This document shows positions 2,459 to 41,043 of a DNA stretch of 41,043 nt, piece by piece. Where the stretch lies: the IMG/VR virus record IMGVR_UViG_3300021357_000001; one strand, written 5' to 3'. The translations under genes and the position numbers were made by a program. The first letter of the stretch is position 1. Each line of letters opens with the position of its first letter. The stretch is from a virus. The notes beneath the pieces are model-generated. The model made no database searches, was not told the origin of the DNA, and saw only the letters and a list, made by a program, of their open reading frames with translations.

Positions 2459-2515
2459 GGGTACATACTATATATAGTATGTACCCATTTCAAATAATGC
2501 AAGGTCTTCGCAAGG
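2459..2515 (+). promoter_or_regulatory. 57-nt composite element, copy A (28-bp perfect palindrome + ATTTCAAATAAT + GCAAGG-N5-GCAAGG)
   Basis: Palindrome GGGTACATACTATATATAGTATGTACCC (2459-2486). The tail is identical to the reverse complement of 37782-37800, with GCAAGG at 2499 and 2510. Confidence 0.85.
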
Positions 2516-15843: not shown

Positions 15844-15844
15844 A

Positions 15845-16723: not shown

Positions 16724-16846
16724 TGCCAGACTCCACTCGACTCAACAAACCTATGAAGCCACCCAAAGGAAGTGGGATTGCCCGCCCCACCAAGCGGCAG
16801 AAGATGGGCCGTGGCCTTCACATCGGACGACCAGGAGTATTTGGCG

Positions 16847-18559: not shown

Positions 18560-18569
18560 GAGAAATATT

Positions 18570-19211: not shown

Positions 19212-19553
19212 ATGCAATACTTCACCTGGCATCTGGCTGGTGGACTAACAGCGTCCACCAGCCAGCAACATAGCTACGTGACGGTAGGGGATTTGCGCCC
19301 ACTACTAATCAACCTGTATGCGAAGACTGCTCCAGGCTCCAATGCACCCCTAACCCTCGACATCAACGACGATGGGGTGTCGATTTTCACCTTCCTTCCA
19401 AATATGTGGACGAGGGGGCCTGTCCGCTTCAGGGGCGTGTTTGTTGATGCGAGGATATTGGAAGGCTCGGTGCTAACGCTAGACATTGACCAGGTAGGCA
19501 GTCCCGAATCTGGCCGTGACCTGACAGTGCAACTGGTTTGTGAGGAGTTCTAA
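19212..19553 (+). CDS. Virion structural protein
   Basis: 113 aa, abutting the previous stop codon. Confidence 0.5.
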   Translation: MQYFTWHLAGGLTASTSQQHSYVTVGDLRPLLINLYAKTAPGSNAPLTLDINDDGVSIFTFLPNMWTRGPVRFRGVFVDARILEGSVLTLDIDQVGSPESGRDLTVQLVCEEF

Positions 19554-20263
19554 TGGCTACCCCCACATCACTCCCCCCAATATCTAGGGTCAGTGGTGCA
19601 TCCCTCGCCCTAACTATCAACCGACTCTATACCCAAAAGCCTATCTGGGCAAGAGAGGCGGAGTTTTACACTCCCGCCGAGGCACGCCTTCTCATCTGCC
19701 CCGCACTTACTGCTGCCTTCTTCTATGACGGAACAACCTACACTGACATCCGCCCCGCAGTAAGCGACCCCGATGCCCTGACCGCCACATTCAACTCCAT
19801 GCCAACAACTGGCTTCTGCTACCTCATAAGCCAGTACCAGTTCAACAGGTTTCGTATCGACGTAACCAACACGAACAGCACTGTCAGCACCATGACAGTT
19901 ACCTACTGGAACGGTTCGGCCTGGACTGGTGTCAGCAACTTCTCGGACGGTACTGCGTTGAGTAGTGCAACCCTTGGACAAGATGGTGAGGTGACTTGGG
20001 ACTTGCCTACCGACGAGGCCACGACCACCCTAACAATTAGTGGCACCCCCTTCACTGGCTGGATAATACGGTTCGCAGTAAGCGTCACACTCGATGCTAC
20101 GGTGAGCATAGACCAAATAATCCTGGGCGGTCAGGGCACCTCCTACGCCTACGTGCAACCTGGTATCCGTACATTCAACCTAGACCGTGCGGCAGGCTTT
20201 ATCTCCCTAGTTGACGCCGCCACAGCCACCGCACGAGTCTCATGGAGCGGTTATAGTGGTTAG
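19553..20263 (+). CDS. Virion structural protein
   Basis: 236 aa with TAATG coupling. Confidence 0.55.
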   Translation: MATPTSLPPISRVSGASLALTINRLYTQKPIWAREAEFYTPAEARLLICPALTAAFFYDGTTYTDIRPAVSDPDALTATFNSMPTTGFCYLISQYQFNRFRIDVTNTNSTVSTMTVTYWNGSAWTGVSNFSDGTALSSATLGQDGEVTWDLPTDEATTTLTISGTPFTGWIIRFAVSVTLDATVSIDQIILGGQGTSYAYVQPGIRTFNLDRAAGFISLVDAATATARVSWSGYSG

Positions 20264-21737: not shown

Positions 21738-21743
21738 GAGTGT

Positions 21744-22037
21744 ATGGCAATTCAAATTGCATGGACTGACCAGTGGAACACCCTCTACAAACTTGGCTAC
21801 TGCCGAGTCATGGATGTCTCGGTCAACAACTTTGCCCAGCGTGCAACCGTGTCAGTCGGATATTATGGTAGTGCAGCGGAACGGGCAACACTGCCTCCCC
21901 GTGCCTCCTCTACCTTCCTCTTCGTGCAACCAGACTACACCCCACTTTTCCTCACTCCTGGCAAGACCGACGCAATCAATGCGGCATACCTGGCCCTGAA
22001 GGGCCTGACCGAGTTTTCAACTGGAGTGGATGTATGA
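21744..22037 (+). CDS. Hypothetical protein
   Basis: 97 aa with AGGAG upstream. Confidence 0.55.
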   Translation: MAIQIAWTDQWNTLYKLGYCRVMDVSVNNFAQRATVSVGYYGSAAERATLPPRASSTFLFVQPDYTPLFLTPGKTDAINAAYLALKGLTEFSTGVDV

Positions 22038-22363
22038 GGTATATTCCTGACCTGCCTTATCTGGACTGGCGTGGACAGACCGCCTTTGGTGACGATGGGC
22101 AGCAGTTCACTTGGCCCAAGGCCCTATTCACCATCGCCAACGCCTACACTCCGATGGCGCAGTTTGAACTCCGTGGGGACGAGATGCGCCAGTTCAACAA
22201 GGCGATGGACGCACTAGAAACGGGATGTGGACTTGAGGATGCTTGGTTCAACACCCTAGTACGTGTGGTAGACTATTTCTCCACCAAAATGCCGTTTTGG
22301 TGTCGGAGCGGGCCTGCCATATCCGAGTTTCTTTCTGCCTGTCCGTGCGAGAAGCCGGAGTGA
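22034..22363 (+). CDS. Hypothetical protein
   Basis: 109 aa with ATGA coupling. Confidence 0.55.
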   Translation: MRYIPDLPYLDWRGQTAFGDDGQQFTWPKALFTIANAYTPMAQFELRGDEMRQFNKAMDALETGCGLEDAWFNTLVRVVDYFSTKMPFWCRSGPAISEFLSACPCEKPE

Positions 22364-22590
22364 GCAAGCTCACACCACACCTCTCCATGTTCGCCATTGT
22401 GGGGGCATGGAACTTTGTTTACGTGGCTGCGGTGCGCACCTCTGTAGACCAGTCGTTGCTGGCAGTACCAACGACACTTGCCATAGTCGGATTCTGGTTC
22501 GCAGGGACGAGGCTGTGTCGTGACTGGTGGTTGTTGCCAGCCGCACTTGTAGGTGGGGCCATCGGTACTTTCTTAGGGATTAAGGTATGA
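22360..22590 (+). CDS. Small three-TM membrane protein (holin candidate)
   Basis: GTG 22360 overlaps the previous TGA; an alternative ATG lies at 22387. There are three hydrophobic segments: FAIVGAWNFVYVAAV, LAVPTTLAIVGFWFAG and WLLPAALVGGAIGTFLGI. Confidence 0.5.
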   Translation: MSKLTPHLSMFAIVGAWNFVYVAAVRTSVDQSLLAVPTTLAIVGFWFAGTRLCRDWWLLPAALVGGAIGTFLGIKV

Positions 22591-22748
22591 AGGTCGTACA
22601 GCCCACCATCTCTCTTGCCGCAATAGCTGGCCTGGTTGTGCTAGAGATAGTGGCTATACGCTCAGGGATGGATGGTGTGCTATTTAGCGCAGTTGTTGCG
22701 CTGATTGGATTGATTGCGGGCGTAAACTTGAGAGGCAGGAATGGGTAG
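22587..22748 (+). CDS. Small two-TM membrane protein (53 aa)
   Basis: Not in the ORF track. It has an ATGA overlap upstream and an 8-nt overlap with the next gene. Translation is MKVVQPTISLAAIAGLVVLEIVAIRSGMDGVLFSAVVALIGLIAGVNLRGRNG. Confidence 0.45.
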   Translation: MKVVQPTISLAAIAGLVVLEIVAIRSGMDGVLFSAVVALIGLIAGVNLRGRNG

Positions 22749-24036
22749 GACTCGTGCACAGCTCCGTGACTCGGTGGTGAGGAAGTTGGGCCTCCCCCTC
22801 ATCTCCGGCACCTCCAACTCATCCGGCAATACCACCACGCTTCTCGACGACGATGACGTGCTGGCACGCTACGCAGACGATGCACTAATTGGGATGTGGT
22901 TGTATGATGAGGTGCCCAGCACCCCCGTCGACTCCGTAATTACCGATTCGGCCCAGGCAACAGGGGTAACCTTCCGGCCCGCAGCAGCCGCGGCCCCTAA
23001 CAGCGAGGCGTATGAGGTACTCCCTTTCTCTGCTTCCGCTATCCACTCTGCCATTGACGATACGCTACTTTATCTCTTTGATACTGGGCTGCTGGTGCGA
23101 GAGTTCTGGATTGGTGGAGTGACAGGCTCTCCCATCTACAACTCAATGTTCGACTATTGGACTACCTCCACTGCCTGTCATGGCTGGACGAGTACCGGCT
23201 CAATGAACCGCCAGCAGGGTGCCGCAGTCAAATGGACTGGCGAGCAGGTGGCAAGGGTTGCCAACATCGGTGCGACGCACTCGCTTGACCCGACATGGCG
23301 GCGCTTCCTGACCGACCTTGCTGGACAGACCATTAGATTGCGGGCTTGGTGCAATACTGCCACCGCATCAACCTTACGCATCCAAATTGTTGGTGCAGCC
23401 ACAAGCTCATCACCCTACCACTCCGGCGATGGGGAGTGGGAAATGCTTGAGATACAAGCCACACTCGCCGTAACTGACCTGGACTGGATACCACGTATCA
23501 CTACTGGTGACATTGCAACTCAGGACGTAGGGGAGATTTGGATTGACTCAGGGTACGTGCCTGCCGAGCACCCCATCCCCATCGCACTCATGCCTGGCGG
23601 CCCAACTGCCATCTATCTCTCTCACATGCCAGTCAACATAACGGATAGGAAGGCAGAAGTACGCCCGTCAAGGCTACACCCCTGGCACCACTGGCGCTGG
23701 CAACGCTACCACGACCAGAACGCCGATGTGGAATTTGGTACAATTATTTGGACTGAGCGCCCACCCCCAGGTATGCGTATGTGGGTGATGGGTAGTGGCC
23801 CGCTTACCCTCCCCACCTCCACCACAACCATTGTCGAGGTGAATCAGAGTGAAGCCGAACTCATTGCGAACATGGTTGCACTGAGGCTACTTGAGTTGCA
23901 GATGGGTGCACTGCCCGCTTCTGGCAAGTCTGCTCTTGCCGACAGGATAGCCAGACTTCAGCGGGACGCATCCATACTGGCCGAGGGATTTGGTGCAAGG
24001 ACAAGAACCGCATCGCTCCCTAGGCAGTGGCCCTAA
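22741..24036 (+). CDS. Tail protein
   Basis: 431 aa with GAGAGG upstream, in the tail part of the structural operon. Confidence 0.55.
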   Translation: MGRTRAQLRDSVVRKLGLPLISGTSNSSGNTTTLLDDDDVLARYADDALIGMWLYDEVPSTPVDSVITDSAQATGVTFRPAAAAAPNSEAYEVLPFSASAIHSAIDDTLLYLFDTGLLVREFWIGGVTGSPIYNSMFDYWTTSTACHGWTSTGSMNRQQGAAVKWTGEQVARVANIGATHSLDPTWRRFLTDLAGQTIRLRAWCNTATASTLRIQIVGAATSSSPYHSGDGEWEMLEIQATLAVTDLDWIPRITTGDIATQDVGEIWIDSGYVPAEHPIPIALMPGGPTAIYLSHMPVNITDRKAEVRPSRLHPWHHWRWQRYHDQNADVEFGTIIWTERPPPGMRMWVMGSGPLTLPTSTTTIVEVNQSEAELIANMVALRLLELQMGALPASGKSALADRIARLQRDASILAEGFGARTRTASLPRQWP

Positions 24037-26522
24037 TGGATGCTCTTTCATCCGCATACGACCTCACCCTGCAAGACCTATCCACTTCTCCCACCATCAC
24101 GGTACAGCTAGTCCTCGCTGAAGATGAGGAGAGTGGCCAGAAGATGTTGGTAGAGCAGCGCCACCTGCCTGAGCCGAGTCAGGTCGAAGGGGAGGTGTCT
24201 ACCCATCCTGACCCGCTCGTCGACCTGGTATGGAAGCAGGATGACTGGTCGGGTGGCTGTGGTCAACTCCGGTATGACCGAGAACATCCTAACCGCTACC
24301 TTGGATCATCCGGCATTGATGCGAGGGGAGCAAATGCACTTGGCCCTTGGGTAGCCCGTTCCCCTATCAGCTTGTTTGTCCGAAATGGTAGTGCAGAGGA
24401 TGGTACGAACGGCTGGACAGAAGAGAATGGTGCATCCTTAACCCAACAGACATCCGAAGCACAACAGGGCACATACGGCTTTCGTGTCACCGACTCTTCA
24501 GGTGCCCTCAATGATAGGTTATTCTCCCAAACCCTCACCAACCCAACCGTTTATCAGAGCCGAGAAATTAGGGTCTACGCAAACTGTCGCAGGTCAGCGG
24601 GAGCCGAGGCAGGTATGCGTATCCTCATTAATGATGGGGTTAGTACGACACGCAGTACCTCCATCACTAACGCCGCCTTTACCACGGTCTCTGTAGTAGC
24701 AACTATCGGCGCAACTGCCACTGTGGTGCGTATCGGGTTTGACCTGGACGCCGCAATCACCACCACCCACACCTTCGCTATCGACTCGATAAAGGTGTTC
24801 CCTACTGGTGGAGTTGAGTGGTTTGGCACTACCTCGATTATTCAAGCAACAGTGCGGGAATGGTATAGTGCATTTGGCCGTTGCTTATGTAAGTGGAATC
24901 GAACCACGTCAGTATACGAGGCAGTATACATCGACTCAGCGAACCCAATTACCGACATTCTTGGGTTCGATGGTAATATACTAATCGCATTTGGGAGTGC
25001 TGCACGCTACCGATTTGGAAGCGACACCACCTGGACTCAAGTTAATGTGGCCACTGGAGACTCACCCCGCCAGTTTGCCATTGGCCGTGATAATAATGGT
25101 GCACTTGCAGTCTGGCAGTCCACCGCAATCAACGATACCCGATTGCACTACTCACTTGTTCCGGCCAACGCCACTCCAGGTTGGAGTGGTAATTTGGCGT
25201 GTGGCGATGACAGCCTGCTTGTCACCAACCTATTCTCTTTCCTCGACTCGGTGGTGGCAGGAAAGGAAGAAGGACTCTTCATCTACCGACAAGTGTGGCC
25301 CAATACCGGCACCGCCACCGGAGCGAACAGGATGTTCAACCTACTGCCGGAGTGGGAAGGCTTACCCTCCTCCACCCACTGGCGGACAGGAGTGGCACAC
25401 CAGGGCTGGCTCTACCTTGTGACTTCGGCTGGGTCTCTAGTCCGGTATGATGGGGCAGTATTTGAAGATTTAGCATACCTGTTCGATTGGGTAGGAGGGT
25501 TGCCTGGTGTTGGCGATAATATAGTCAACGCTGTCGGAGAACCAAACGGGAACATACGTGGGCTAGTGAGTGACCTGACTACTCTCTGGCTTCTAGTCGA
25601 TTCACTTGAACAGGGCGACACCACTGCTAGACCAGCCAACCTCTTCACCCTTACCGAGTCCGACGACGAATTTATACTACACCAGGTCGAGAATAGCGGT
25701 CTGGTTACTGTGGCGGAGAGCTTCGCTCCTCTAGGAATTACCGAGGCAGACGGCCTGGCCCTGGTGGATGGGTCGATTCATGTCTATGTGCGTAGGTTTG
25801 CGCTTACCCCAACTAATAATGTAGAGAATTTTAGTAGATACCCATTGCCTATCGGGTCTATGTTCCCCTACATGGACGGGAGCAACGTCACAGTAACCAT
25901 CACCGACCAGGGCCTGGTCACTTCGGTGTGGGATGCAGGACTACCCAGCGAGGACAAGGCGTTCCTGTGGCTTGACTTTTGGACTCGTGGCACTAGCGAT
26001 GCATCCAGTCGTAACCTGACAGTCGAGTTTTCGATTGACGGAGGGGCGTGGACAACCCTTGGTTCTACCAACACCAGTGCAGCTACCATACCAGTCTTAC
26101 GCACCCTTTCTTTCAATGACGTGGCTAGCCCCACTACTGCTGCGGTAGGTGGACAAATCGCATTTCGATTCAGCACTAGCGGCATCGGCGCTGCGACCCG
26201 CCGACTCATCCTCTCCTTCGAGCTTCATGCGGCAATAAGGCCACTGCGCTTTAGGCAGTGGGACTTAACTGCGGAGGTGGGGCCAGAAGTGCTTTTACGC
26301 AACGGCACCTTCGACCCTCAATCCCGCACCACAGTGCTGTCTCGCCTCTCCACCCTAGAGCAGCAAGTCTACCCAATTACTCTAATACAGGACTGGGATG
26401 CAGATGGCACTACCACCTCCATCCCTGTATTTATTCGGGAGTTGGTGAGACTGCCTGACTCGTTGCCTGGTCGGGAGCGCATACGTCTGGTGCTACAGGA
26501 AGCGAGGACGACATCCGCCTAA
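24036..26522 (+). CDS. Large tail protein (nozzle/spike-like, beta-rich)
   Basis: 828 aa from ATG 24036 with a TAATG overlap; the track start is 24027. It is the last gene of the plus-strand module. Confidence 0.6.
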   Translation: MDALSSAYDLTLQDLSTSPTITVQLVLAEDEESGQKMLVEQRHLPEPSQVEGEVSTHPDPLVDLVWKQDDWSGGCGQLRYDREHPNRYLGSSGIDARGANALGPWVARSPISLFVRNGSAEDGTNGWTEENGASLTQQTSEAQQGTYGFRVTDSSGALNDRLFSQTLTNPTVYQSREIRVYANCRRSAGAEAGMRILINDGVSTTRSTSITNAAFTTVSVVATIGATATVVRIGFDLDAAITTTHTFAIDSIKVFPTGGVEWFGTTSIIQATVREWYSAFGRCLCKWNRTTSVYEAVYIDSANPITDILGFDGNILIAFGSAARYRFGSDTTWTQVNVATGDSPRQFAIGRDNNGALAVWQSTAINDTRLHYSLVPANATPGWSGNLACGDDSLLVTNLFSFLDSVVAGKEEGLFIYRQVWPNTGTATGANRMFNLLPEWEGLPSSTHWRTGVAHQGWLYLVTSAGSLVRYDGAVFEDLAYLFDWVGGLPGVGDNIVNAVGEPNGNIRGLVSDLTTLWLLVDSLEQGDTTARPANLFTLTESDDEFILHQVENSGLVTVAESFAPLGITEADGLALVDGSIHVYVRRFALTPTNNVENFSRYPLPIGSMFPYMDGSNVTVTITDQGLVTSVWDAGLPSEDKAFLWLDFWTRGTSDASSRNLTVEFSIDGGAWTTLGSTNTSAATIPVLRTLSFNDVASPTTAAVGGQIAFRFSTSGIGAATRRLILSFELHAAIRPLRFRQWDLTAEVGPEVLLRNGTFDPQSRTTVLSRLSTLEQQVYPITLIQDWDADGTTTSIPVFIRELVRLPDSLPGRERIRLVLQEARTTSA

Positions 26523-26977: not shown

Positions 26978-27189
26978 ATTCCAATGGGTAAGATGTCAGT
27001 GACGCAGGCCCTCGGTATGCACTGCCAATTCAGTATTACGTCCTCACTTATGCCCTGGGCCAATTTCACCACCCTCTCATCCTTAGAGATGAGAAACCCT
27101 ACACTCTCCACCTCCGCCAGCTCAAATATGTCTGGGTTTTGTGGAAACCAACCTGCTGCCGAGCACGTATCTAGCCACTTGACCAGCAC
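26971..27189 (-). CDS. Hypothetical protein
   Basis: GTG 27189 shares one nt with the polymerase TAG stop. The track alternative, ATG 27306, would overlap the polymerase gene by 118 nt. Confidence 0.45.
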   Translation of the reverse strand: MLVKWLDTCSAAGWFPQNPDIFELAEVESVGFLISKDERVVKLAQGISEDVILNWQCIPRACVTDILPIGIC

Positions 27190-28904
27190 TAGATGGAACT
27201 CATGTTGCCCCAGTCCTTTCCCATCTGTATCGCTACAGGTAAGACAATGGGCATTAGTCCCAGTGTCATAGTACCCAGGGTCTGTATTGATTGATTGACT
27301 TGACATTCTTCTACCTCCAACACTAGCTCGTCGTGTATGCTGAGGACAAGTCCGCTGGTCTGAGCAGCTACTCGCTGCATGGCCAGCTTGATAACCGTTG
27401 CGGCTGGCCCACTAATGAGAAAGTTAGCTGCTGCACGTACTGCGGCCTGCCTGTCCAGGGGGCTGGCTGACCAGACTCCTGGGAACATTCTTCTTCTACC
27501 AAACCAGTCCCTTAGCCAGCCCTGCCTCATTACCTCTTCTTCGACCCGCTCCGCATAGCTGGCTAGTCCAGGAAACATCCTGCCCACTTCCACATGAGCC
27601 TGACGTGCCCGATTCAGGTCAATCCTAGCATCTATCTCATGTATCTTTTGCCAGCCACACCCATACAGCCTTGCGAGAAAGTAGGTCTTTGCTGTGAACC
27701 ACTCGACCTCATCCCGCTTCGTAATAGGTCGACCATACAGTAGCTCCCCAAACACGGAATAGGGCGCAACCCCCTGGTCAAACAAAGCAGTCAGGGCAGG
27801 CTCCGGTGCGACCAGTCCAGTAATGCGTGGTTCCTCTTGCCCAATATCTCCCGACACCAACACACACCCTGGCCTCGCCACAATGCACTGACGGACTCGC
27901 TTGGCCCACACTGGGTTGCCATGATGTGGCACTTGTTGCAAGTTTGGTACTGAGCAGGACAGTCGGCCTGTACCTGGAGCATCCCTGGCCATTTCAGCCC
28001 GCTCATAGTGTCCGGCCTGATTGAACTGGGGGTGGAGCCGCCCATCGGCTGACCTTAGCTCCAGGAACGACCTAGTATATCCTTCTAGCTTTGCCATCTC
28101 CTTAAATCCTAGAAGCGAGTCGATGAGAGGGGGGTTCCACTCCCTCACCCCATTCAGCGCCGACTCATCTGTAACAAGCTGGTTCTTTGTCGCAGTGCGG
28201 GAGCTAATTGGGCAGCCTAGCTTCTCCAATGCCCAGGCAAGCTGCTCGTGACTGGCGAGGTTAATGGGGCCAAGGATGGTAAGGGTGGCCTGCCTGTACT
28301 CTTCCTTCCTGGCCAGGATGTCGGAGTGTAGTGTGAGAGTTGCTTCTTCGTTGACCAGGACGCCACGCTCTTCCATACCAATAAGGACGTAGACAAGTGG
28401 CTTTTCCACATCTTCGTAAAGCCAGGTCAGTCCCTCCCTCTCTAGTTGTGGCTGGAGAATGAGCCACAGGCGAAGTGTATTATCCGCATCTCCAGAGGCA
28501 TACTGGACTATCTCGGCAGGCTCCAACTCGCTCATGTCTCTGCCGCCAGTTACCTGACTGTAGGTGATTGGGTCAGTCGAGAGTAGCTGGCGGGTAAGAG
28601 ATTTCAGTCCCGTGCTCAAATATCCTAGTAGGTAGGCTGCAATTTTCGTATCCTCGAAGGGATATACTTTGATGCCAAGCCTGTTCAGTCGGCCCAGGTC
28701 AAACTTGGCATTGTGAAAGACCTTCACCCATTCCCCCGATTCGAGTATGTCTTGCATGTCTGGGCCAGGCACGCCTTCCACATACGCCGCCCTGCCTGCC
28801 TCAGTCGCTAGGGAGTATCCTATTATCTCCGCCTCATGCACAATGAACTTGCCCAGGCGGGTTGGGCTGGTCGTTTCGGTATCGAAGCCGAGTAGTCTAG
28901 GCAT
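27189..28904 (-). CDS. Family A DNA polymerase with 3'-5' exonuclease domain
   Basis: Exonuclease motifs are FDTETT and YASGDAD. Polymerase motifs are A (LVSGDIGQEEPRI), B (FTAKTYFLARLYGCG) and C (SIHDELVLEV). Confidence 0.9.
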   Translation of the reverse strand: MPRLLGFDTETTSPTRLGKFIVHEAEIIGYSLATEAGRAAYVEGVPGPDMQDILESGEWVKVFHNAKFDLGRLNRLGIKVYPFEDTKIAAYLLGYLSTGLKSLTRQLLSTDPITYSQVTGGRDMSELEPAEIVQYASGDADNTLRLWLILQPQLEREGLTWLYEDVEKPLVYVLIGMEERGVLVNEEATLTLHSDILARKEEYRQATLTILGPINLASHEQLAWALEKLGCPISSRTATKNQLVTDESALNGVREWNPPLIDSLLGFKEMAKLEGYTRSFLELRSADGRLHPQFNQAGHYERAEMARDAPGTGRLSCSVPNLQQVPHHGNPVWAKRVRQCIVARPGCVLVSGDIGQEEPRITGLVAPEPALTALFDQGVAPYSVFGELLYGRPITKRDEVEWFTAKTYFLARLYGCGWQKIHEIDARIDLNRARQAHVEVGRMFPGLASYAERVEEEVMRQGWLRDWFGRRRMFPGVWSASPLDRQAAVRAAANFLISGPAATVIKLAMQRVAAQTSGLVLSIHDELVLEVEECQVNQSIQTLGTMTLGLMPIVLPVAIQMGKDWGNMSSI

Positions 28905-33502: not shown

Positions 33503-34195
33503 TCACTTTTCCGTTTCATTTAACTCCTTCCTTTTTGCTAGGATGGTGGGGCCTACCCCCCTAACTTCCATCCATAACTTCTCTTCACAGGTTAGTGCAG
33601 TAACCAGGTTGTTGTTGCAGAGGAGGGCGATTTCCCTAGCAAGGCGTGGCCCGAACCGGCTCCCTTGCATCAATCGCCATAGTGCTAGCGCACATCCAGT
33701 CAGGGGTGGCTCAGCTTGCTTATCATGCCCTGCGAGTGGCGAAAGTAGGTGACGGCCTGGCTGCAAGGTTGCACGCAGCGCCCTCAGCATATCCCAGTAA
33801 TCACCTGGAGTGTCTGGTAGCCATGCCAGTACCACCCCTAACACCTGCATCTTCACCAAGTCCAGTGCCAACTTCTCCAGCCAAATATCTGGGAGGCCCC
33901 CCCTTAGCCCCAACACCCCTATGTCCGCTTCCAAAGCAATTCGCCTTAGTTGCCTCTGCATCCGATGGCTAAACCAACTATTTACCAGGTCAGGTGGCTT
34001 CTTCTCTTCAATCAGGATGAGCTGGCCCACCTGATTTACCATCAATATGTCGCCCACGGGCAACTGACATTTCTGTGCATCCACTGGCAATCCGTAGTCG
34101 TGCTGCCTTGAGTCAATGTACATGGTGGTGGCGGGGCCAAGTATACGCTCGCCCAGCAGCAACTGTCCATCCGACATCCTGTATACTCTAGCCAT
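33503..34195 (-). CDS. ERCC4 (XPF/Mus81)-type nuclease with C-terminal helix-hairpin-helix
   Basis: Contains IDSRQ, LPVGD and LIEEKKPPDLVNS...RMQRQ, which matches ERKxxxD. The C-terminus has VRGVGPTILAKR. Confidence 0.6.
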   Translation of the reverse strand: MARVYRMSDGQLLLGERILGPATTMYIDSRQHDYGLPVDAQKCQLPVGDILMVNQVGQLILIEEKKPPDLVNSWFSHRMQRQLRRIALEADIGVLGLRGGLPDIWLEKLALDLVKMQVLGVVLAWLPDTPGDYWDMLRALRATLQPGRHLLSPLAGHDKQAEPPLTGCALALWRLMQGSRFGPRLAREIALLCNNNLVTALTCEEKLWMEVRGVGPTILAKRKELNETEK

Positions 34196-35231
34196 GCAAG
34201 CTCACCAGTCTTCGACGTTTATCCTTCTTGTCTACTGTGCTGTGGACTTGGCCTGAGCGTTCTAGTGTCGCCCTGACGTTCTCGATGGTGCGACGACCCA
34301 GCCCACAAATCTCCGCTACCTCATCGTCGAGCGTACGTGGCGACATGCTCCCTCTTTCCAACAACTCCAGCATCACTGTGGCTGGGTCGGTATCTGCCAC
34401 CACCATCCTTTGTCCATCGAACCTGACTACACGGGCGGGGGGTAGGCCAGCCCTTCTCATCTTCTCCCATCTCAATATGACCTCCGGCCCATCCCTTGCT
34501 TGCCTTACTGCAAGGATGGTGTCAGGCCAGCCAATGAGATTGGAGTGGCCCCGCAGTCCTATATACCCATCCGAGTCGATGGAGATGGATGCTTTGGTCT
34601 GGTGATGGGTTAGGATGACAGACAAGTTGTATTTCTCTACCAGCCAGTCCCAATGCCCTAGGAAATCGCTGGTGGCCTGGTCGTCATTCTCTCCCCCACT
34701 CATAAACTGGTATATGGGGTCGATAATTAAGATGTCAGGCCCATACTTCTCCGCCAGCTCTGCCATGTGAACCCACCTTGCCTCGTTGATGAGCTTCCGG
34801 TCACGCCCTGCCATAATGATATGGAAGCGGCCTAGTGTGGGCTGGCCGGACGAAATACCCTTCGCTCTTGATGCGTACATCGCTGGTACGCCTTCCCCTA
34901 CCACATACAATACCTTGCATATTTGGGCAAAACTGTAGTTCAGCCAGTCTAGGCCAGCCGCAGCGCAATAACCAAGCTGCTGCATTAGGTAGCTCTTGTA
35001 GCTGCCTGGTGCGCCATACACGATGGCCCGACCTTGTGGGAATAGCACACCTGACTCACCCTCCGCCAGCAATGGTCTGTCTTCGGGCCAGTCCCCACCT
35101 ACCAAATCATCATGGTCAAGAACTGGCCACTCCTCACTAATCGAACTCCGGCGGGGGAGACGGCTGCGTGAGGGATTGTGACTGTCCTCCATCATCGAAG
35201 TCAAGTGGTAGCTGGACGGGAAGTACATCAT
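34188..35231 (-). CDS. RepA/DnaB-like RecA-fold helicase (AAA_25-type) with C-terminal wHTH
   Basis: Walker A GAPGSYKS, Walker B ILIIDPIY, and ILTHHQTK. The C-terminus has ICGLGRRTIENVRATLERSG. The start is uncertain (35231 or 35195). Confidence 0.65.
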   Translation of the reverse strand: MMYFPSSYHLTSMMEDSHNPSRSRLPRRSSISEEWPVLDHDDLVGGDWPEDRPLLAEGESGVLFPQGRAIVYGAPGSYKSYLMQQLGYCAAAGLDWLNYSFAQICKVLYVVGEGVPAMYASRAKGISSGQPTLGRFHIIMAGRDRKLINEARWVHMAELAEKYGPDILIIDPIYQFMSGGENDDQATSDFLGHWDWLVEKYNLSVILTHHQTKASISIDSDGYIGLRGHSNLIGWPDTILAVRQARDGPEVILRWEKMRRAGLPPARVVRFDGQRMVVADTDPATVMLELLERGSMSPRTLDDEVAEICGLGRRTIENVRATLERSGQVHSTVDKKDKRRRLVSLHG

Positions 35232-35433
35232 GTTTGTCGGTCAGGCCAAGCAGGTTGATGTATGGCTGGCCGTCGTGAAGGATGCCTCGTGCGTCCACCC
35301 CCAGCAGCTTGAACTCATTGACGATACGAAAGATGTCGGCCCGTTCAAACTGGATTGTCAGGTCAACCACGTAGTTGGGGGTGTGTCCGGCCTGCAACCG
35401 CCGCACCATCTCCGGTAAATCTGAAATCACCAT
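35137..35433 (-). CDS. Hypothetical protein
   Basis: 98 aa. It overlaps the helicase ORF by 59-95 nt, depending on which helicase start is used. Confidence 0.5.
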   Translation of the reverse strand: MVISDLPEMVRRLQAGHTPNYVVDLTIQFERADIFRIVNEFKLLGVDARGILHDGQPYINLLGLTDKHDVLPVQLPLDFDDGGQSQSLTQPSPPPEFD

Positions 35434-35660
35434 AACTCCTCTCCTATTAGGTCTGAGTCCTCATTTTCTGAGCACCCTTCTGTAATAACGTACTTTGGCA
35501 CACGCTTGCGATGGCTATAGCCAGCCAGGTATTCGTCTTGCAGGTATGGGCCTAGCGGCATGACGGGCAGGTAGAGTGGCCTAGCACACGCACAGCACAC
35601 CAGTGCACCCAACCATGCATCAAAGCAGAGCAGCCCCCCACATCTCATACAGTTCTTCAT
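35427..35660 (-). CDS. Zinc-ribbon protein
   Basis: 77 aa with CMRCGG...CCAC. Confidence 0.55.
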   Translation of the reverse strand: MKNCMRCGGLLCFDAWLGALVCCACARPLYLPVMPLGPYLQDEYLAGYSHRKRVPKYVITEGCSENEDSDLIGEELW

Positions 35661-35974
35661 TGCTCCTCCAAATCACTGAGTCCAGTCACACATCCCCGAA
35701 TGTTGGACTCAGGACGCCTAGCCCCCAAGTCGTTCGCATCAACAATACACCTTGCTTCGGCCTTGTTAATCCCAAATGCCTGGGATAGTATATCTGCTGC
35801 GAGTGGATGGGTACAGGGGTATACATAGCCAAGAAGGTCGGCCCCCACCCACCCAGCAAAACAGACTGGCCTACCAGTGAATATGTCGTGGAGCCTGTCC
35901 CGTCCGAGTTTAATGCCACGGGTATGCAGGCTAGTCAAGTAATCTAGGATTGTATTTTGTTGTGATGCGTTCAT
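35657..35974 (-). CDS. Early paralog family member A
   Basis: Shares these blocks with 35977, 36295, 37308 and 39576: IL-x-YL-x-L-x3-[IH]-x-L-x-R, P-x-C-F-A-G-[HW]-V, and AFG...EA..I..AN[DN]-x-G...PE..IR. Confidence 0.7.
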   Translation of the reverse strand: MNASQQNTILDYLTSLHTRGIKLGRDRLHDIFTGRPVCFAGWVGADLLGYVYPCTHPLAADILSQAFGINKAEARCIVDANDLGARRPESNIRGCVTGLSDLEEQ

Positions 35975-35976
35975 GG

Positions 35977-36276
35977 TTACTCCGAAACTGGGCAGAAGTC
36001 TAGGTACTTTCTTATCCCATCCTCTGGTCGTGGCCCGCCCACATCGTTCGCATGAATAATACCCGCTGCTTCAACCCGTTTAACCCCAAACGCTCTGGCT
36101 AGTACCTCGGTTGCTGAGTCATAGTATAGGTAGGGATAGTAAAAATCTTCCATTACGTGTCCAGCAAAACAGGCTGGTCTATTATTTTCGTACAGCTTGT
36201 GACGCTTGAGTTGAATGTGCCTACGTTCCAGGTCAGCCAGGTACTCCAGGATTGTCTCTTTCTGAATACTGGTCAT
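35977..36276 (-). CDS. Early paralog family member B
   Basis: Family blocks ILEYLADLERRHIQLKR, PACFAGHV and AFGVKRVEAAGIIHANDVGGPRPEDGIRKYL. Confidence 0.7.
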   Translation of the reverse strand: MTSIQKETILEYLADLERRHIQLKRHKLYENNRPACFAGHVMEDFYYPYLYYDSATEVLARAFGVKRVEAAGIIHANDVGGPRPEDGIRKYLDFCPVSE

Positions 36277-36294
36277 TTTTTCTCCTATCCGATT

Positions 36295-36597
36295 TCATAC
36301 TTGCTCTGGACAGAGGGCTAAGTATTTCCTTATGTTCTCCTCTGGTAGCCCGCCTTTATTATTCGCACGGACAATGCCTGCTGCCTCGCGACGGCTGATG
36401 CCAAATGCCAGGATCAGGATTTCGGTTGCTGGAAGATAGTTTTCCCACGGCAAGTAGTGGAGCAAGTCTGCTTCTACGTGCCCAGCAAAGCTGGCTGGTT
36501 CGTTTTTGTCATACAGCCAGTCGCGCTTGAGGTGTATGTGCCTAAATTCCAGGTCGTCCAGGTATATCAGGATTGTTTGCCTTTGAGTGTCAGTCAT
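36295..36597 (-). CDS. Early paralog family member C
   Basis: Family blocks ILIYLDDLEFRHIHLKR, PASFAGHV and AFGISRREAAGIVRANNKGGLPEENIRKYL. Confidence 0.7.
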   Translation of the reverse strand: MTDTQRQTILIYLDDLEFRHIHLKRDWLYDKNEPASFAGHVEADLLHYLPWENYLPATEILILAFGISRREAAGIVRANNKGGLPEENIRKYLALCPEQV

Positions 36598-36894: not shown

Positions 36895-37092
36895 TCACCT
36901 TCGCATACGTGCCAGTATGTTATAGCGCATGTCTTCCAGTGCGTCTATCAACCTATCCAACTCGTACTCGGCGTGGGAAAATAGGTCAATCGCCTGCTCC
37001 CTGGATAGATGAGCAATCTCCGGTGATTGTAGGATGGACTCGTGGTTAGTGGGGTCGAGCCATTCCCTCGCTTTTTCTATCATCTCTCTCAT
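36895..37092 (-). CDS. Hypothetical small protein (paralog of 37107..37307)
   Basis: The block P-x-I-x2-LSR-x-[QE]-x-[IV]-DLF...L..L..A.E is shared with the neighbouring gene. Confidence 0.55.
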   Translation of the reverse strand: MREMIEKAREWLDPTNHESILQSPEIAHLSREQAIDLFSHAEYELDRLIDALEDMRYNILARMRR

Positions 37093-37106: not shown

Positions 37107-37307
37107 TCAGTAGTGTATTACCATAATCTTCAGTTCTTCCACCGCAGCCACCAGGCTATTCAGGTATTCGTCTACATCCCTAAACAAGTCAACTATCTCT
37201 TGTCGGGACAGCCCCTTTATCTGTGGCAACAACGCCCACCTTACGCTAGGCCCACCCATCAACTCCCATCTCGCAATTGCCATGACTATTTCTACATTAA
37301 CGTTCAT
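37107..37307 (-). CDS. Hypothetical small protein (paralog of 36895..37092)
   Basis: LPQIKGLSRQEIVDLF aligns with SPEIAHLSREQAIDLF. Confidence 0.55.
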   Translation of the reverse strand: MNVNVEIVMAIARWELMGGPSVRWALLPQIKGLSRQEIVDLFRDVDEYLNSLVAAVEELKIMVIHY

Positions 37308-37625
37308 CTAGCTCATCCCCCCTAGCCACGCCCTTATTCCCAGCTCCGGCGTTTCATACGACGCATCGTCATTCGCCTCGACCAACCCTTCCGCCTCTGC
37401 CTCAGACAGCTCGAATGAAGCCATCAACGCTTGTCCTGCTACCGATACCTCTAAAGTTCTTGTAAAAGGCTGTCCATACAATTTGTCTATGGATGCGTGT
37501 CCAGCAATACAGTTTGGCTTGGAGTCATCGTTGAACATGGCATAGCGCCCAAGCTTTATTCCTCTACCTTCCAGGTCGGCCATGTATGCTAGTATTGCCT
37601 CGTGGGTTTCCGCTTTCATGTCCAC
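37308..37625 (-). CDS. Early paralog family member D
   Basis: Family blocks ILAYMADLEGRGIKLGR, PNCIAGHA and EAEAEGLVEANDD...PELGIRAWL. Confidence 0.65.
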   Translation of the reverse strand: MDMKAETHEAILAYMADLEGRGIKLGRYAMFNDDSKPNCIAGHASIDKLYGQPFTRTLEVSVAGQALMASFELSEAEAEGLVEANDDASYETPELGIRAWLGGMS

Positions 37626-37650
37626 CCCTCTTTTTCTAAAATCTGGTTCA

Positions 37651-37679
37651 AGGATACCATGTCAGTCACACTTTGTCAA
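37651..37679 (-). promoter_or_regulatory. Putative sigma70-type promoter upstream of paralog D
   Basis: Minus strand reads TTGACA (37679-37674), a 17-nt spacer, then TATCCT (37656-37651). Confidence 0.4.
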
Positions 37680-37771
37680 TGAGGCAAAATGTTCGCAACA
37701 CCCTTTTGCGAGTAATTTTGCGTGTACCGTGTCTGTGTCGTTTCGACAGTCTGGTGCACCCACATCTGAAA

Positions 37772-37828
37772 CCTTGCATCCACCTTGCATTATTTGAAAT
37801 GAGTGGATACTATATATAGTATCCACTC
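37772..37828 (-). promoter_or_regulatory. 57-nt composite element, copy B (inverted relative to copy A)
   Basis: Palindrome GAGTGGATACTATATATAGTATCCACTC (37801-37828). On the minus strand it is followed by ATTTCAAATAATGCAAGGT, then GGAT, then GCAAGG. Confidence 0.85.
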
Positions 37829-38033
37829 ATGCGAGCTTACGGATGTGTTCCTGTACTTCCTCTGGACTCGTTTGGCAACGATTATTGTATTCTATCTGGT
37901 CACGATAATCTAGTGCCATTCCCACATCATCCATTGCTTGACTAAATATCAGACTGTCTTGTGGAGTGGGGGTGTTCCATACCCCATTCTCATACTTAGA
38001 GAACTGGCAGCCCCGTAACTGGGCTACTCTCAT
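37827..38033 (-). CDS. Hypothetical protein
   Basis: 68 aa. Its stop codon lies inside the palindrome arm. Confidence 0.5.
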   Translation of the reverse strand: MRVAQLRGCQFSKYENGVWNTPTPQDSLIFSQAMDDVGMALDYRDQIEYNNRCQTSPEEVQEHIRKLA

Positions 38034-38151
38034 AGCCGGTCAACGACGGCGACCCTTCCCAGGCACCAGACTAGCCCCCCTGGTAGTTACTGCCACACTC
38101 TTAATACCTGCCTTGACCTCTCGGACTTCCTCTTTAGTCAACATACCTCTC

Positions 38152-38328
38152 CTATACTATCCGTGCTATCGCCCAGGCTAGCATAGCCAGCCCATACACC
38201 AAAGCTAGTATTATACCGCCTCCTATAATCAGACCAAAGCACCCAAACGGTTGTCTCCCTTCCATGCTATCTACTCGGATGAGGGCCTGCTCGTAGTCCG
38301 AGTCGGTTATGCGAGACTTGACCTTCAT
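38152..38328 (-). CDS. Possible 58-aa C-terminally anchored membrane protein
   Basis: Not in the ORF track. AGGAGGG lies 4 nt upstream of ATG 38328. Translation is MKVKSRITDSDYEQALIRVDSMEGRQPFGCFGLIIGGGIILALVYGLAMLAWAIARIV. Confidence 0.45.
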   Translation of the reverse strand: MKVKSRITDSDYEQALIRVDSMEGRQPFGCFGLIIGGGIILALVYGLAMLAWAIARIV

Positions 38329-38347
38329 ATCGCCCTCCTGCGTAGGA

Positions 38348-38602
38348 TTAGTCCATCCTGGGAATTGGACGTTGGGTATAGACTACCTCCAAAGCACCGT
38401 CTTCCACCTCTTTAACACTGGTGCGAACAATACACTCGGAGAGTACGACTCTCAATGTCACTTCATTTCCTGTAATCAGGCTGATTATGTCTCCATCTAC
38501 CCATTCAAAGTCGATTGGTTCTTCCTGGAAGTGGTGTCGCAGTGCATAAAGTATGTTCGCCTCTACCAGTTGCTTGACCTGGAGTTTGAGTGAATCTGCC
38601 AT
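38348..38602 (-). CDS. Hypothetical protein
   Basis: 84-aa ORF. Confidence 0.5.
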   Translation of the reverse strand: MADSLKLQVKQLVEANILYALRHHFQEEPIDFEWVDGDIISLITGNEVTLRVVLSECIVRTSVKEVEDGALEVVYTQRPIPRMD

Positions 38603-38625
38603 ATCTTCCTATCTTCGCTGTTGTG

Positions 38626-38904
38626 TTACCAAGGGCCGTAATGCTTGGCTTTAAGCGCAAGGGTTAGAGCCTTTGTCTGCCCATACCGTTCGTGTTCCAC
38701 TGGGACGAATATCTCCGCAAACTCTTCCATCTCGAAGGTGATTCCTGATTGGGGTTCCCAGACATATATACCTTGGGCGTTTGTAAACTCTACCCATGCA
38801 TGGAGAGTCCCGTTTACCCTCCCGTGGACAAGGATAGTGTTCTCGTTTTGGTTATCCACGCATCTCCGCCATGCGTCTTGATAGCATGTTCCCGTAGGTA
38901 TCAT
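38626..38904 (-). CDS. Hypothetical protein with a Cys/His pattern (possible small papain-like fold)
   Basis: 92 aa with GGAGTGAG upstream. Contains TCYQDAW...LVHGRV...LHAWVE...VWEP. Confidence 0.5.
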   Translation of the reverse strand: MIPTGTCYQDAWRRCVDNQNENTILVHGRVNGTLHAWVEFTNAQGIYVWEPQSGITFEMEEFAEIFVPVEHERYGQTKALTLALKAKHYGPW

Positions 38905-38999
38905 GGCTCACTCCGAGGCCCCTTATGGGGCCTGCGTTCTTTGTGATAGTGTAATGTGCCGTCTGAGTTTCATTGTTCTACCTCCTCTCGCTTCTGGCC

Positions 39000-39152
39000 T
39001 TATCGGGCCTGTGGGCTAGTCTGTTGTCGGTTTTGCTCACAATTTCGACATAACTCTTTCCTGGCCCACCGCTGCCAGTCCTTTGCCGCCTGAGCATAGT
39101 CGAAGCGGGCTGTTTCAGTGTGCTTGCACTTGTATGTCAGTACGGTTATCAC
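39000..39152 (-). CDS. Possible 50-aa Cys-containing protein
   Basis: Not in the ORF track. GTG 39152 follows AGGGGGAAA. Translation is (V/M)ITVLTYKCKHTETARFDYAQAAKDWQRWARKELCRNCEQNRQQTSPQAR. Confidence 0.35.
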   Translation of the reverse strand: MITVLTYKCKHTETARFDYAQAAKDWQRWARKELCRNCEQNRQQTSPQAR

Positions 39153-39161
39153 TTTCCCCCT

Positions 39162-39377
39162 TTATTCAGGCCAATCTTTAAGGTCAGCCATGTAGACTTC
39201 CATAGCCCAATCCTTTGCGTCTTGCCTACACTTCCACGGCCCAGCCATTGTCGTGGTGACTGAGCTTGGGTCGGATGGATGACCTAGCATCTCAACTCCG
39301 TACCACTCTTCCCCTACTAGGTTGGCAGAGCGATATACGTCATGGTTTATATTTCTAGCCTCTAATCTGTTGTTCAT
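39162..39377 (-). CDS. Hypothetical protein
   Basis: Internal ATG 39377 follows GGAGAAGG and forms an ATGA overlap with the upstream gene. Confidence 0.5.
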   Translation of the reverse strand: MNNRLEARNINHDVYRSANLVGEEWYGVEMLGHPSDPSSVTTTMAGPWKCRQDAKDWAMEVYMADLKDWPE

Positions 39378-39583
39378 GCCTTCTCCTGGTCTATCTTTAG
39401 CTCCAGCTTGACTGGGCTGTGCAGGGATGGTAGTCTTCCTATCCTTAAGGCTTGGGCTATGTCCTTCCATACCTCGGCCCATCCCTCATCCTCATCGCAC
39501 ATCCCCCCACAAGTCAGCCATGACATCGGGGCAGTGACCCTAACTATTGCGTACCTGGAGTGTAATGGGCCTTCCTCATTCAT
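39374..39583 (-). CDS. Hypothetical protein
   Basis: ATG 39583 follows GGGAGAAG and overlaps the stop of paralog E by 8 nt. Confidence 0.5.
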   Translation of the reverse strand: MNEEGPLHSRYAIVRVTAPMSWLTCGGMCDEDEGWAEVWKDIAQALRIGRLPSLHSPVKLELKIDQEKA

Positions 39584-40010
39584 ACACTTCTCCCTTCTCA
39601 CTTGTCTTCATAACCCATCTTCGTATGGCTGGCGTACCACCCTGGTCATTACAGTTTATTAGGGCGACCACTTCTTTCACAGTAAGGCCGAAGGCCATTT
39701 TCCCAATCGCAGTAGTTGTTAATAGGCCCGTGCTGCTGAGACGGTTGTACTCCTCTGGACTCAGGGGATAGGTCAGGCCCAGCAAGTCCGCTCCTACATG
39801 ACCAAAGAAACAGACCGGCCTTCCATCCATATCATGCAGGGAACGCCTGCCTATCTCTACTCCCATTTCCATTAGGTAGTCCAGGTATGCCCCGATTTTC
39901 TCTGGCCCATTTTCCATATTCACAACGGCTAGGATGTCACACTGGCAAGCTTCTTCGCCGTGCATCTTGGGGTCAAGGCTTAGTGGGCAGTCGTTATAGT
40001 GCTCGCTCAT
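39576..40010 (-). CDS. Early paralog family member E (with a Cys-containing N-terminal extension)
   Basis: Family blocks IGAYLDYLMEMGVEIGRR, PVCFFGHVGADLLG and AFGLTVKEVVALINCNDQGGTPAIRRWV. AAGGAG lies 6 nt upstream of the start. Confidence 0.7.
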   Translation of the reverse strand: MSEHYNDCPLSLDPKMHGEEACQCDILAVVNMENGPEKIGAYLDYLMEMGVEIGRRSLHDMDGRPVCFFGHVGADLLGLTYPLSPEEYNRLSSTGLLTTTAIGKMAFGLTVKEVVALINCNDQGGTPAIRRWVMKTSEKGEVYE

Positions 40011-40013
40011 ACT

Positions 40014-40169
40014 CTACTCCTTACACGCAGCGTAAAACCTATAGGTATCGAAGTGTGGGTTAAACATTCGGCATACATCCGCTATTGCTACTATCACCTG
40101 GTCTTTAGTAGGGTTAGATGGGAGCATAGCGATTGCCAGGGCGATTGCCTTGAAGTGCTTCCTTGTCAT
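40014..40169 (-). CDS. 51-aa protein (paralog of 40188..40376)
   Basis: Not in the ORF track. GAAGGAGAAGG lies upstream. Translation is MTRKHFKAIALAIAMLPSNPTKDQVIVAIADVCRMFNPHFDTYRFYAACKE. Confidence 0.55.
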   Translation of the reverse strand: MTRKHFKAIALAIAMLPSNPTKDQVIVAIADVCRMFNPHFDTYRFYAACKE

Positions 40170-40187
40170 AGTCACCTTCTCCTTCAC

Positions 40188-40376
40188 TTAAAATCTGCCA
40201 GTATTTAGGAATGGCCCAAATATACTCTGTGCCCATATGATTTCATCTAGTAATTGGTATTTGGTGCGGCTGTTTGGCATTGCCATGATTCCCTCTATTA
40301 TCTGCTCCTGAGTAGGATTGACTGGTAGCTTTGCGACCAGCCTTTCGAGTATCTTGAGATGTCTCTTTGCAACCAT
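40188..40376 (-). CDS. Hypothetical small protein (paralog of 40014..40169)
   Basis: ATG 40376 follows GAGGGAAG. MVAKRHLKILERLVAKLPVNPTQEQIIEGI aligns with the neighbour. Confidence 0.55.
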   Translation of the reverse strand: MVAKRHLKILERLVAKLPVNPTQEQIIEGIMAMPNSRTKYQLLDEIIWAQSIFGPFLNTGRF

Positions 40377-40378
40377 TG

Positions 40379-40738
40379 TTATCTTCCCTCTCTGCATTTT
40401 GAACGCCAGATTGCCGCAAGTCCCTGTAATACTGAGTTGTCTGGATACAGCAAGTCAACCGGAGAGAGCAAGGCCAATATCCTGTCAGGACAGTTGTACG
40501 CACATGGCCCCATCCCCTCGTCCATATCCTGCCAGCCAAAGTTGAACTGCTCCCATCGTGGCCTGTAATTGGTAAATAACACTACTCCCATGACCAGCCC
40601 ATCATCCCTCTTGTACGCCATGTACGCCTCATGCAAGCTGGTGGTAGCTAGGTCTACTACATGAATCACTCCATATTCAGCCGTAAATACTTCCAGGTTA
40701 GTTAGGCCCGCCTTCCTATGTATGTATATCCAGCCCAT
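40379..40738 (-). CDS. Hypothetical protein
   Basis: 119 aa, containing FGWQDMDEGMGPCAYNCPDRILALL. Confidence 0.55.
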   Translation of the reverse strand: MGWIYIHRKAGLTNLEVFTAEYGVIHVVDLATTSLHEAYMAYKRDDGLVMGVVLFTNYRPRWEQFNFGWQDMDEGMGPCAYNCPDRILALLSPVDLLYPDNSVLQGLAAIWRSKCREGR

Positions 40739-41043
40739 TATACTTCTCCTCTAGTTGTTCTTTCTGCACTAACCAGATAATCGCCTGGACTTGTTGAGGC
40801 AAGATGTGGAGTCCATACGCCATGTCTCTTATCGCATCCTGGATGAGAGAGACACGCCCCATGCCATGCCACTTGCGCCGTTCGCTATCTGTCAATGCCC
40901 TTCCCACCGCTGCGTGGATTATGTGTCTGTCCACAACAGGTAGGTGATATGGCTCCTCTGGGTCACAGATAGTCATCCAGAATGGTACTACCTTGGGGCC
41001 AGACAGGTGCCACCCGATAGGCTCCCCTTCTATCATTGCCATT
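40716..41043 (-). CDS. 3' part of the wrap-around hypothetical early protein (continues from nt 399->128)
   Basis: Track ORF 40716..41042. The frame has no stop before the window end and continues through the 127-nt overlap. Confidence 0.7.
   Translation of the reverse strand, partial: MAMIEGEPIGWHLSGPKVVPFWMTICDPEEPYHLPVVDRHIIHAAVGRALTDSERRKWHGMGRVSLIQDAIRDMAYGLHILPQQVQAIIWLVQKEQLEEKYNGLDIHT
40917..41043. repeat. Terminal direct repeat, copy 2 (identical to 1-127)
   Basis: Direct comparison of the two window ends. Confidence 0.95.

Follow-up and report, generated by a model that had tools for sequence, protein, structure and literature searches.

A family of five small paralogous genes

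The window analysed here, the whole 41,043-nucleotide stretch of IMG/VR virus record IMGVR_UViG_3300021357_000001, carries on its minus strand five short open reading frames (ORFs), W1 to W5, that form one paralog family (Table 1). Their products are alignable end to end at 27-58% pairwise identity, and every pair is connected by BLASTP at E <= 9e-6 in a search against some 1,000 six-frame segments, where the best unrelated one has E > 0.1. W2 and W3 are the closest pair (58% identity, E 1e-34); W4 and W5 share 28% identity, with E about 5e-6. A family hidden Markov model (HMM) run against all six-frame segments of the window recovers exactly these five copies, at E 1e-35 to 6e-44, and detects no fragments or remnants of the family, the next match having E = 0.57. 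The original prediction, made from the sequence alone, had proposed a five-member family with three members in tandem, and both searches bear this out. The family genes sum to 1,674 nt, or 4.1% of a 40,916-bp genome, in line with the roughly 1.6 kb of 41 kb first estimated.

W1-W3 make up an adjacent trio separated by gaps of 2 and 18 nt, and W4 and W5 are dispersed. A Shine-Dalgarno-like motif precedes every copy at a distance of 5-10 nt, and the codon adaptation indices of the five (0.71-0.81) lie in or just under the span seen for long genes of this phage (0.75-0.80). W2 and W3 have in common a 143-nt 5' block with 73% nucleotide identity that includes the ribosome-binding site, i.e., the duplication unit takes in the ribosome-binding site. 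The W1 stop codon and the ATG of the following gene overlap as ATGA, within the operon leading to the helicase. All five ORFs lie on the minus strand as first described, and one start has to be moved: W4 most likely begins at ATG 37619, in agreement with a public gene call, rather than at GTG 37625, and GAGGGG is found 7 nt upstream of this ATG. A 14-codon upstream ORF (37616-37660, minus strand), which encodes MVSLNQILEKEGWT before its stop, overlaps the W4 start through another ATGA; in a sibling phage introduced below, L001, the corresponding sequence is fused in frame to the W4 ortholog, yielding a 116-aa protein.

The three conserved blocks that were first used to define the family (N-terminal, central and C-terminal) are right as a consensus, and individual copies depart from their literal form. 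W1 has Trp for His in CFAGH and Ser/His for Asp/Glu in the 'DLE' element; W3 has Ser for Cys; W4 reads CIAGHA, and SFE instead of AFG; W5 has IG instead of IL and is missing the 'PE'. W5 also has extra parts, namely an 11-residue insertion in the variable loop and a 31-residue N-terminal extension (residues 1-31, 39918-40010 on the minus strand), in which His4, Cys8, Cys22 and Cys24 are kept in the L001 ortholog. The extension may be a small zinc knuckle.

Table 1. Members of the family in the window and in the sibling phage, with neighbouring features of the window. Positions refer to the window unless a contig is named.
Feature	Position	Strand	Remarks
W1	35657-35974	-	105 aa, pI 5.8; last of trio; HMM E 4e-43; GGAG upstream
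W2	35977-36276	-	99 aa, pI 6.1; AGGAG upstream
W3	36295-36597	-	100 aa, pI 5.5; near-invariant Cys replaced by Ser
W4	37308-37619	-	103 aa from ATG 37619, pI 4.4, net charge -10; dispersed
W5	39576-40010	-	144 aa, pI 4.9; dispersed; AAGGAG upstream
W1 ortholog L6	L001 6352-6669		85% aa identity; dN/dS 0.24
W2 ortholog L4	L001 5745-6056		69% aa identity; dN/dS 0.18
W3 ortholog L3	L001 5437-5748		70-73% aa identity; dN/dS 0.30
W4 ortholog L2	L001 4374-4724		63-64% aa identity; dN/dS 0.39
W5 ortholog L1	L001 1140-1580		81-83% aa identity; dN/dS 0.30
Sixth member (fourth tandem copy)	L001 6053-6349 = L004 808-1104	-	no window counterpart
Candidate intergenic control region	37626-37830	-	about 200 nt, in front of W4
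Tandem paralog pair	36895-37092 / 37107-37307	-	next to W4
Tandem paralog pair	40014-40187 / 40188-40397	-	next to W5
77-aa protein, CxxC...CxxC spacing typical of zinc ribbon	35427-35660	-	no Pfam/PHROG match
AAA_25 helicase	34188-35231	-	directly after small-gene block
ERCC4-like nuclease, PD-(D/E)XK nuclease, UDG-family protein		-	replication module after helicase
Family-A DNA polymerase (Pol A)	27189-28904	-
Terminase	4073-5518	+
Portal	5515-7281	+

The original prediction did not recognise the family, and database searches agree. Pfam-A, PHROGs v4, NCBIfam r20 and PADLOC-DB v2 return no match: the best E-values, 0.06-0.5, are far below curated cut-offs, and the weak matches differ from copy to copy, with no library family recurring across the members. 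Of 5.8 billion proteins, nine are matched in a word-indexed profile search, and all of them belong to this contig, to L001 (a 10.3-kb contig from the same sample, syntenic with the window's early region) or to a 58-aa fragment that is identical in sequence to W2. When 1.84 billion cluster representatives are searched exhaustively with HMMER, one further L001 copy is added, along with two spurious matches, P0011 (2,139 aa) and P0012 (415 aa), which were considered as distant homologs and rejected as internally repetitive proteins matching over short stretches ('RPSCFAGQ' recurs in P0012). At a permissive cut-off (E <= 10), tblastn against 50,697 GenBank phages yields noise alone. The most promising of these matches, ORF339 of Xanthomonas phage XacN1 ('DSAVLEVVLARGVKLAQAAEI..VGGP'), was discarded as a predicted membrane protein with an hhalign probability of 0.15%. 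In these searches, the family HMM matches no well-characterised housekeeping family. Further phage relatives were sought with the helicase as an anchor, and none were found in IMG/VR or JGI metagenomes; a 20-nt intergenic motif used as a probe retrieves one JGI contig, L004, of the same genotype as L001. Among the proteins searched, then, sequence matches confine the family to two phage genotypes, with no homolog outside this phage lineage. A literature search for comparable phage paralog families found nothing usable.

Orthologs, copy number and selection in a sibling phage

The family has six members in L001, a tandem array of four plus two dispersed genes; with the five window copies, they make up the set of 11 members to which all statements on conservation refer. 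Each window copy has a one-to-one L001 ortholog at 63-85% amino acid identity. The sixth gene, a fourth tandem copy, is 60% identical to L4 and 57% identical to W2, and is therefore an older paralog, whose split predates the divergence of the two phages. The 2-nt gap between W1 and W2 in the window contains no remnant of it, and the sequences are compatible with either loss in the window lineage or retention in the sibling alone. Unequal crossover, which would make W2 a recombinant of L4-like and L5-like copies and explain three versus four tandem genes, was also considered and rejected: no breakpoint is apparent from the informative-site pattern (best Fisher p = 0.04, permutation p = 0.31).

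The ratio of nonsynonymous to synonymous substitution rates (dN/dS; Nei-Gojobori) is 0.18-0.39 across the five ortholog pairs, with dS 0.34-1.16, in a comparison that spans two genotypes only (site models would need more); other small early genes have ratios of 0.18-0.71 and replication genes 0.07-0.18. Low ratios in every pair indicate that all five copies are real coding genes under purifying selection. The notion that they are non-functional ORFs, either decaying duplicates or chance reading frames, has missing annotation and nothing else in its favor and is effectively refuted by dN/dS below 0.4 in five of five pairs, by reading frames that are intact in both phages, by the Shine-Dalgarno motifs and by the confident predicted folds described below.

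Duplication is not peculiar to this family. A genome-wide all-against-all search identifies just three paralog families, all tandem and all in the early block; the other two are pairs whose products are 51-69 aa long (BLASTP E 4e-5 and 5e-6), one beside W4 and one beside W5. Because the early block holds all three, the block as a whole appears to evolve by tandem duplication. The family itself would have arisen by repeated, mostly tandem duplication that predates the split of the two sibling phages, with each copy retained since under purifying selection.

Predicted fold, conserved scaffold and variable loop

AlphaFold2 models W2 from a 10-sequence family alignment with a predicted local distance difference test score (pLDDT) of 90.9 and a predicted template modelling score (pTM) of 0.84. 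The W2 model has helices at residues 3-18, 37-45, 55-63, 67-79 and 84-94 and a hairpin at residues 29-34. An independent W5 model has the same core and helix order, with pLDDT about 88 over residues 32-140; here, the loop insertion is modelled as an additional helix, and the N-terminal extension has pLDDT < 45. The family members would thus be small, soluble cytoplasmic proteins sharing one compact fold, in which an N-terminal helix is followed by a beta-hairpin and four helices.

The fold is confidently predicted and has no solved analogue. Foldseek searches of the PDB with the two models give no match at E < 1e-3 or TM > 0.5 (best E 1.6 and 0.85, TMq <= 0.39), and a hmmsearch of PDB sequences with the family profile returns 0 matches at E <= 10. 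Against BFVD, Foldseek returns four phage proteins (TMq 0.53-0.62, E 0.03-0.8, probability 0.75-1.0, aligned over about 100 columns), the sole structural matches with TM > 0.5: A0A6J7XDA0 (218 aa) and A0A6J7XFP3 (428 aa), both from uncultured Caudovirales, A0A2U8UM49 (130 aa) and A0A7S5R449 (127 aa). They differ from the family in sequence, at 13-23% identity, and HMMER draws no link to it; since all four are uncharacterised, they lend it no function. By these model comparisons, a similar helical domain may recur in other phage proteins, sometimes within longer ones.

Conservation maps onto this fold as a scaffold (residue numbering follows W2). Eight residues, L16, P34, G39, D44, F63, E69, N77 and I88, are invariant in 11 of 11 members, and R25, C36, A38, A55, A62, G64, A70, A76, D78, G80, P84, E85 and R89 are nearly so. 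The scaffold features include a hydrophobic core and Gly/Pro turns; helix 4 begins with an S/T/N-x-x-E capping box and is closed by an N-D-x-G-G C-cap, and a P-E opens helix 5. Most of the conserved residues thus look structural rather than like a catalytic set. A catalytic Cys/His pair in CFAGH was considered and rejected: the Cys is Ser in W3 and the His is Trp/Tyr in W1, L6 and L2.

Cys36 and His40, both nearly invariant, and the invariant Asp44 follow one another at i, i+4, i+8, a spacing that would place them on the same face of helix 2, where they could form a partial metal site or just pack. This arrangement suggests a small-molecule or metal binder, a sponge or sensor acting through a conserved polar site, and with R25, E69, N77, D78, E85 and R89 it adds up to an unusually large conserved polar set for divergent 100-aa proteins. 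However, the same replacements of Cys and His break the putative site in W3, W1, L6 and L2, most of the other conserved polar residues lie at helix ends and can be accounted for as caps, no solved sponge protein is matched in the PDB, and five to six copies would be unexpected for a sponge. Such a ligand-binding role is improbable.

Helices 3 and 4 would resemble a helix-turn-helix (HTH), with the pattern A-x-x-[AS]-F-G-[VIL]-x-x-x-E-A-x-x-[IL]-[IV], and the loop behind helix 1 is basic (R-[GH]-I-[KRQ]-L-[GK]-R). HTH and winged-helix domains have the local pattern in common with the family, as well as an N-terminal 'ILxYLxxL'-type helix; in the family, by contrast, helix 1 is separated from the HTH-like unit by an insertion made up of the hairpin, helix 2 and the variable loop. 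These features raise the question of whether the copies are sequence-specific DNA-binding regulators, i.e., a derived HTH/winged-helix family whose members recognise different operators and time early, middle and late transcription. The weak Foldseek matches are rich in HTH proteins (Rex, homeodomains, HipB, TetR, BEN, serine recombinase), several short-repeat families in the genome are possible operators, and library scans find no phage RNA polymerase. Yet these matches are poor (TMq 0.22-0.39, E > 0.8), no HTH family is significant by sequence, and TM-scores to HTH proteins stay at or below 0.39 with E > 1. Charge also argues against DNA recognition: 10 of the 11 members are acidic to neutral (isoelectric point, pI, 4.05-6.7; the remaining one 8.5), and the net charge of the HTH-like segment ranges from -9 to +2, reaching -8 to -9 in W4/L2. 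Helix 4, which would be the recognition helix, carries a Glu in every member and lacks any conserved Arg or Lys, and the most variable element of the family is a loop outside the HTH-like unit rather than the recognition helix. DNA-binding regulators are therefore an unlikely description of the family.

That loop, between helices 2 and 3 (the H2-H3 loop), accounts for much of the divergence among the copies. The strong divergence between motif blocks that was noticed at the outset is real and is concentrated here: paralog identity is 12% in the loop versus 40% elsewhere. The loop can be as short as 9 or as long as 23 residues, and in 9 of 11 members it is enriched in aromatic residues, e.g., FYYPYLYYDS (W2) and ILRCPPWQWYIQ; its pLDDT is the lowest within the core. 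Between orthologs it is nearly wholly rewritten in two of five pairs (10 of 12 positions in W2-L4, 11 of 15 in W4-L2), and the pooled test marks it as a substitution hotspot (Fisher p = 0.03).

Genomic setting and candidate roles

The window corresponds to ENA contig k141_868335 (MEGAHIT, 41,057 bp) of sample ERZ27245926. It is a rotated circular assembly with an exact 127-bp direct repeat at both ends (1-127 = 40917-41043); discounting this terminal duplication gives the actual genome size stated above, and a DUF7178 gene (40716-41042) runs on across the circular junction. Terminase and Pol A are each less than 30% identical to any of the 50,697 GenBank phage records, and megablast of 11 kb finds no nucleotide-level match among GenBank phages; consequently, no annotated relative supplies context, and the phage, which is uncultured, is deeply novel by sequence. 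Scans of the window for tRNA genes and Rfam families are empty. The plus-strand structural module (7635-26522) has no Pfam match at E <= 1e-3; within it, a 1,864-aa protein (9638-15232, plus strand) shows an internal duplication to the eye ('IHEISHHLSRF...' / 'IHEVMHHLSRF...').

A block of small genes, nearly all lacking a PHROG or Pfam match, extends on the minus strand from an origin-proximal divergent region via position 41043 down to about 35100, where the helicase and the replication module follow. The tandem trio belongs to the same tightly packed operon as the helicase, with two small genes between them; one of these encodes the 77-aa CxxC protein, translationally coupled to W1 and two genes upstream of the helicase. 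The early-region position first assigned to the family holds in that the copies lie in a same-strand small-gene block upstream of the replication module, as fits an early or middle module; gene layout and consensus matches suggest early or mid expression.

The control region proposed in front of W4 contains, in order, a hairpin, a 20-nt motif, a second, weaker stem, a sigma70-like site, the Shine-Dalgarno motif and the ATG. The hairpin (37830-37803) is a perfect 28-nt element starting from the stop codon of the upstream gene, with a folding free energy of -22.5 kcal/mol and z -4.6; its core, TACTATATATAGTA, is followed by the conserved 20-nt motif CATTTCAAATAATGCAAGGT. Together the two occur exactly twice in the genome, at 37780-37830 (minus strand) and 2456-2505 (plus strand), and also at L001 4205-4255, and comparison of these three copies reveals compensatory changes in the arms (GTGGATAC / GTAGATAC / GTACATAC). 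The 2456-2505 copy lies where the 576-2028 operon and the ThyX operon converge, in the gap separating them. The element has no Rfam match; it may act as a terminator or be a palindrome bound by a protein. TTGACA-17-(TG)TATCCT at 37679-37651, the region's best sigma70-like match, has hexamers identical in L001, and its -10 hexamer lies within the 14-codon upstream ORF. The 'own promoter' first ascribed to one copy is, at W4 and on consensus matching, a plausible site; the region has 10 promoter-like sites versus 6.5 +/- 2.7 in shuffles, not clearly above expectation.

Repeats and accessory genes mark other parts of the genome. At least four iteron-like direct repeats (unit about 15 nt, core ATACATATTGTA) occupy 543-652, in the divergent intergenic region where the plus- and minus-strand early operons start, and are candidate operators or a candidate origin. 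Four 44-nt repeats, built of inverted AAGTAAGTG...CACTTAC units, form a cluster at 2105-2226; it precedes the second hairpin copy, upstream of it within the convergent intergenic region. From W5 to W4 the two phages do not carry the same set of genes (window 38040-39377, L001 1980-3466): window ORFs 39162-39377, 38626-38904 and 38040-38144 have no L001 counterpart, and a DUF2958 protein and two other ORFs of L001 are missing from the window. The pattern is typical of an accessory-gene hotspot.

Location next to the replication genes might mean that the copies serve a single phage machine as its subunits or accessory factors, e.g., in a hetero-oligomer with the helicase and replication proteins, and assemble with one another instead of having separate targets. 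The trio does sit in the helicase operon, two small genes away, and the retention of all copies as orthologs under purifying selection is expected if every subunit is needed. But a copy number of five in one phage and six in its sibling is awkward for a fixed stoichiometry, two copies are dispersed, one of them behind its own hairpin and promoter-like site, and Foldseek and PDB searches reveal no similar known replisome component; a single machine of this kind seems distinctly unlikely.

The reading tentatively favored here, although somewhat less likely than not, is that each copy is an accessory factor that binds a protein target of its own and is made alongside the early/replication genes. 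The scaffold would stay constant, whereas the exposed, aromatic-rich H2-H3 loop and surface charge would vary from copy to copy; each copy could then bind a different macromolecular partner, most likely a host protein and possibly a phage protein. Production early or in mid-infection with the replication genes would suit accessory takeover or counter-defence factors, a link that is a reasonable guess.

Several observations weigh against this proposal. The original prediction spoke of diversifying factors; as a statement about positive selection this is not borne out gene-wide, where dN/dS shows no such signal in the five ortholog pairs, i.e., no arms-race signature at gene level, and is not above that of neighbouring small genes. 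The H2-H3 loop is conserved in three of the five ortholog pairs. A tie to defence is unsupported by PADLOC and by the PDB with its solved anti-defence proteins; characterised inhibitors (Ocr/ArdA-type DNA mimics, Acr, Tad/Acb sponges) are absent among the Foldseek PDB and PDB-sequence matches. Finally, the HTH-like element and the basic R-G-I-K-L-G-R loop would be compatible with nucleic-acid binding by the near-neutral tandem copies.

AsiA of phage T4 is a helical, acidic early protein of about 90-100 aa that has an HTH-like element, binds host sigma70 rather than DNA, and is encoded in a single copy. It offers a functional analogy in kind only: it has no sequence similarity to the family, and no AsiA chain is among the Foldseek PDB matches of either model. 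The poxvirus K3L amplification, the MGF genes of African swine fever virus and the baculovirus bro genes are viral multigene families, or 'genomic accordions', of large eukaryotic DNA viruses, with demonstrated roles in host range and immune evasion and with episodes of positive selection. Like them, the present family combines a tandem array with dispersed copies of a small accessory gene, differs in tandem number between relatives (three versus four) and conserves a scaffold while a surface element varies. Unlike them, it resides in a 41-kb genome, all of its duplications are older than the divergence of the two genotypes, and selection on it is purifying at the gene-wide level.

By the available tests the family is new: it matches no sequence family and no solved fold and is found in two genotypes. 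Expanded families of small early phage proteins with no assigned function are a familiar kind, and such orphan status is the norm; what sets this one apart from an ordinary orphan is its five- to sixfold expansion, the copy-number difference between siblings, the unmatched fold and the single variable loop. The early genes of phages are for the most part unexplored, and small orphans of this sort have yielded many anti-defence and host-takeover proteins. The family is a tractable candidate among these, and a solved structure would probably define a new fold family. It is unlikely, on present grounds, that a new fold has been amplified into an array of five to six genes in which each rewritten loop neutralises a different host defence or takeover target. 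If true, the family would be a phage counterpart of the accordion families and would provide a new modular inhibitor scaffold.

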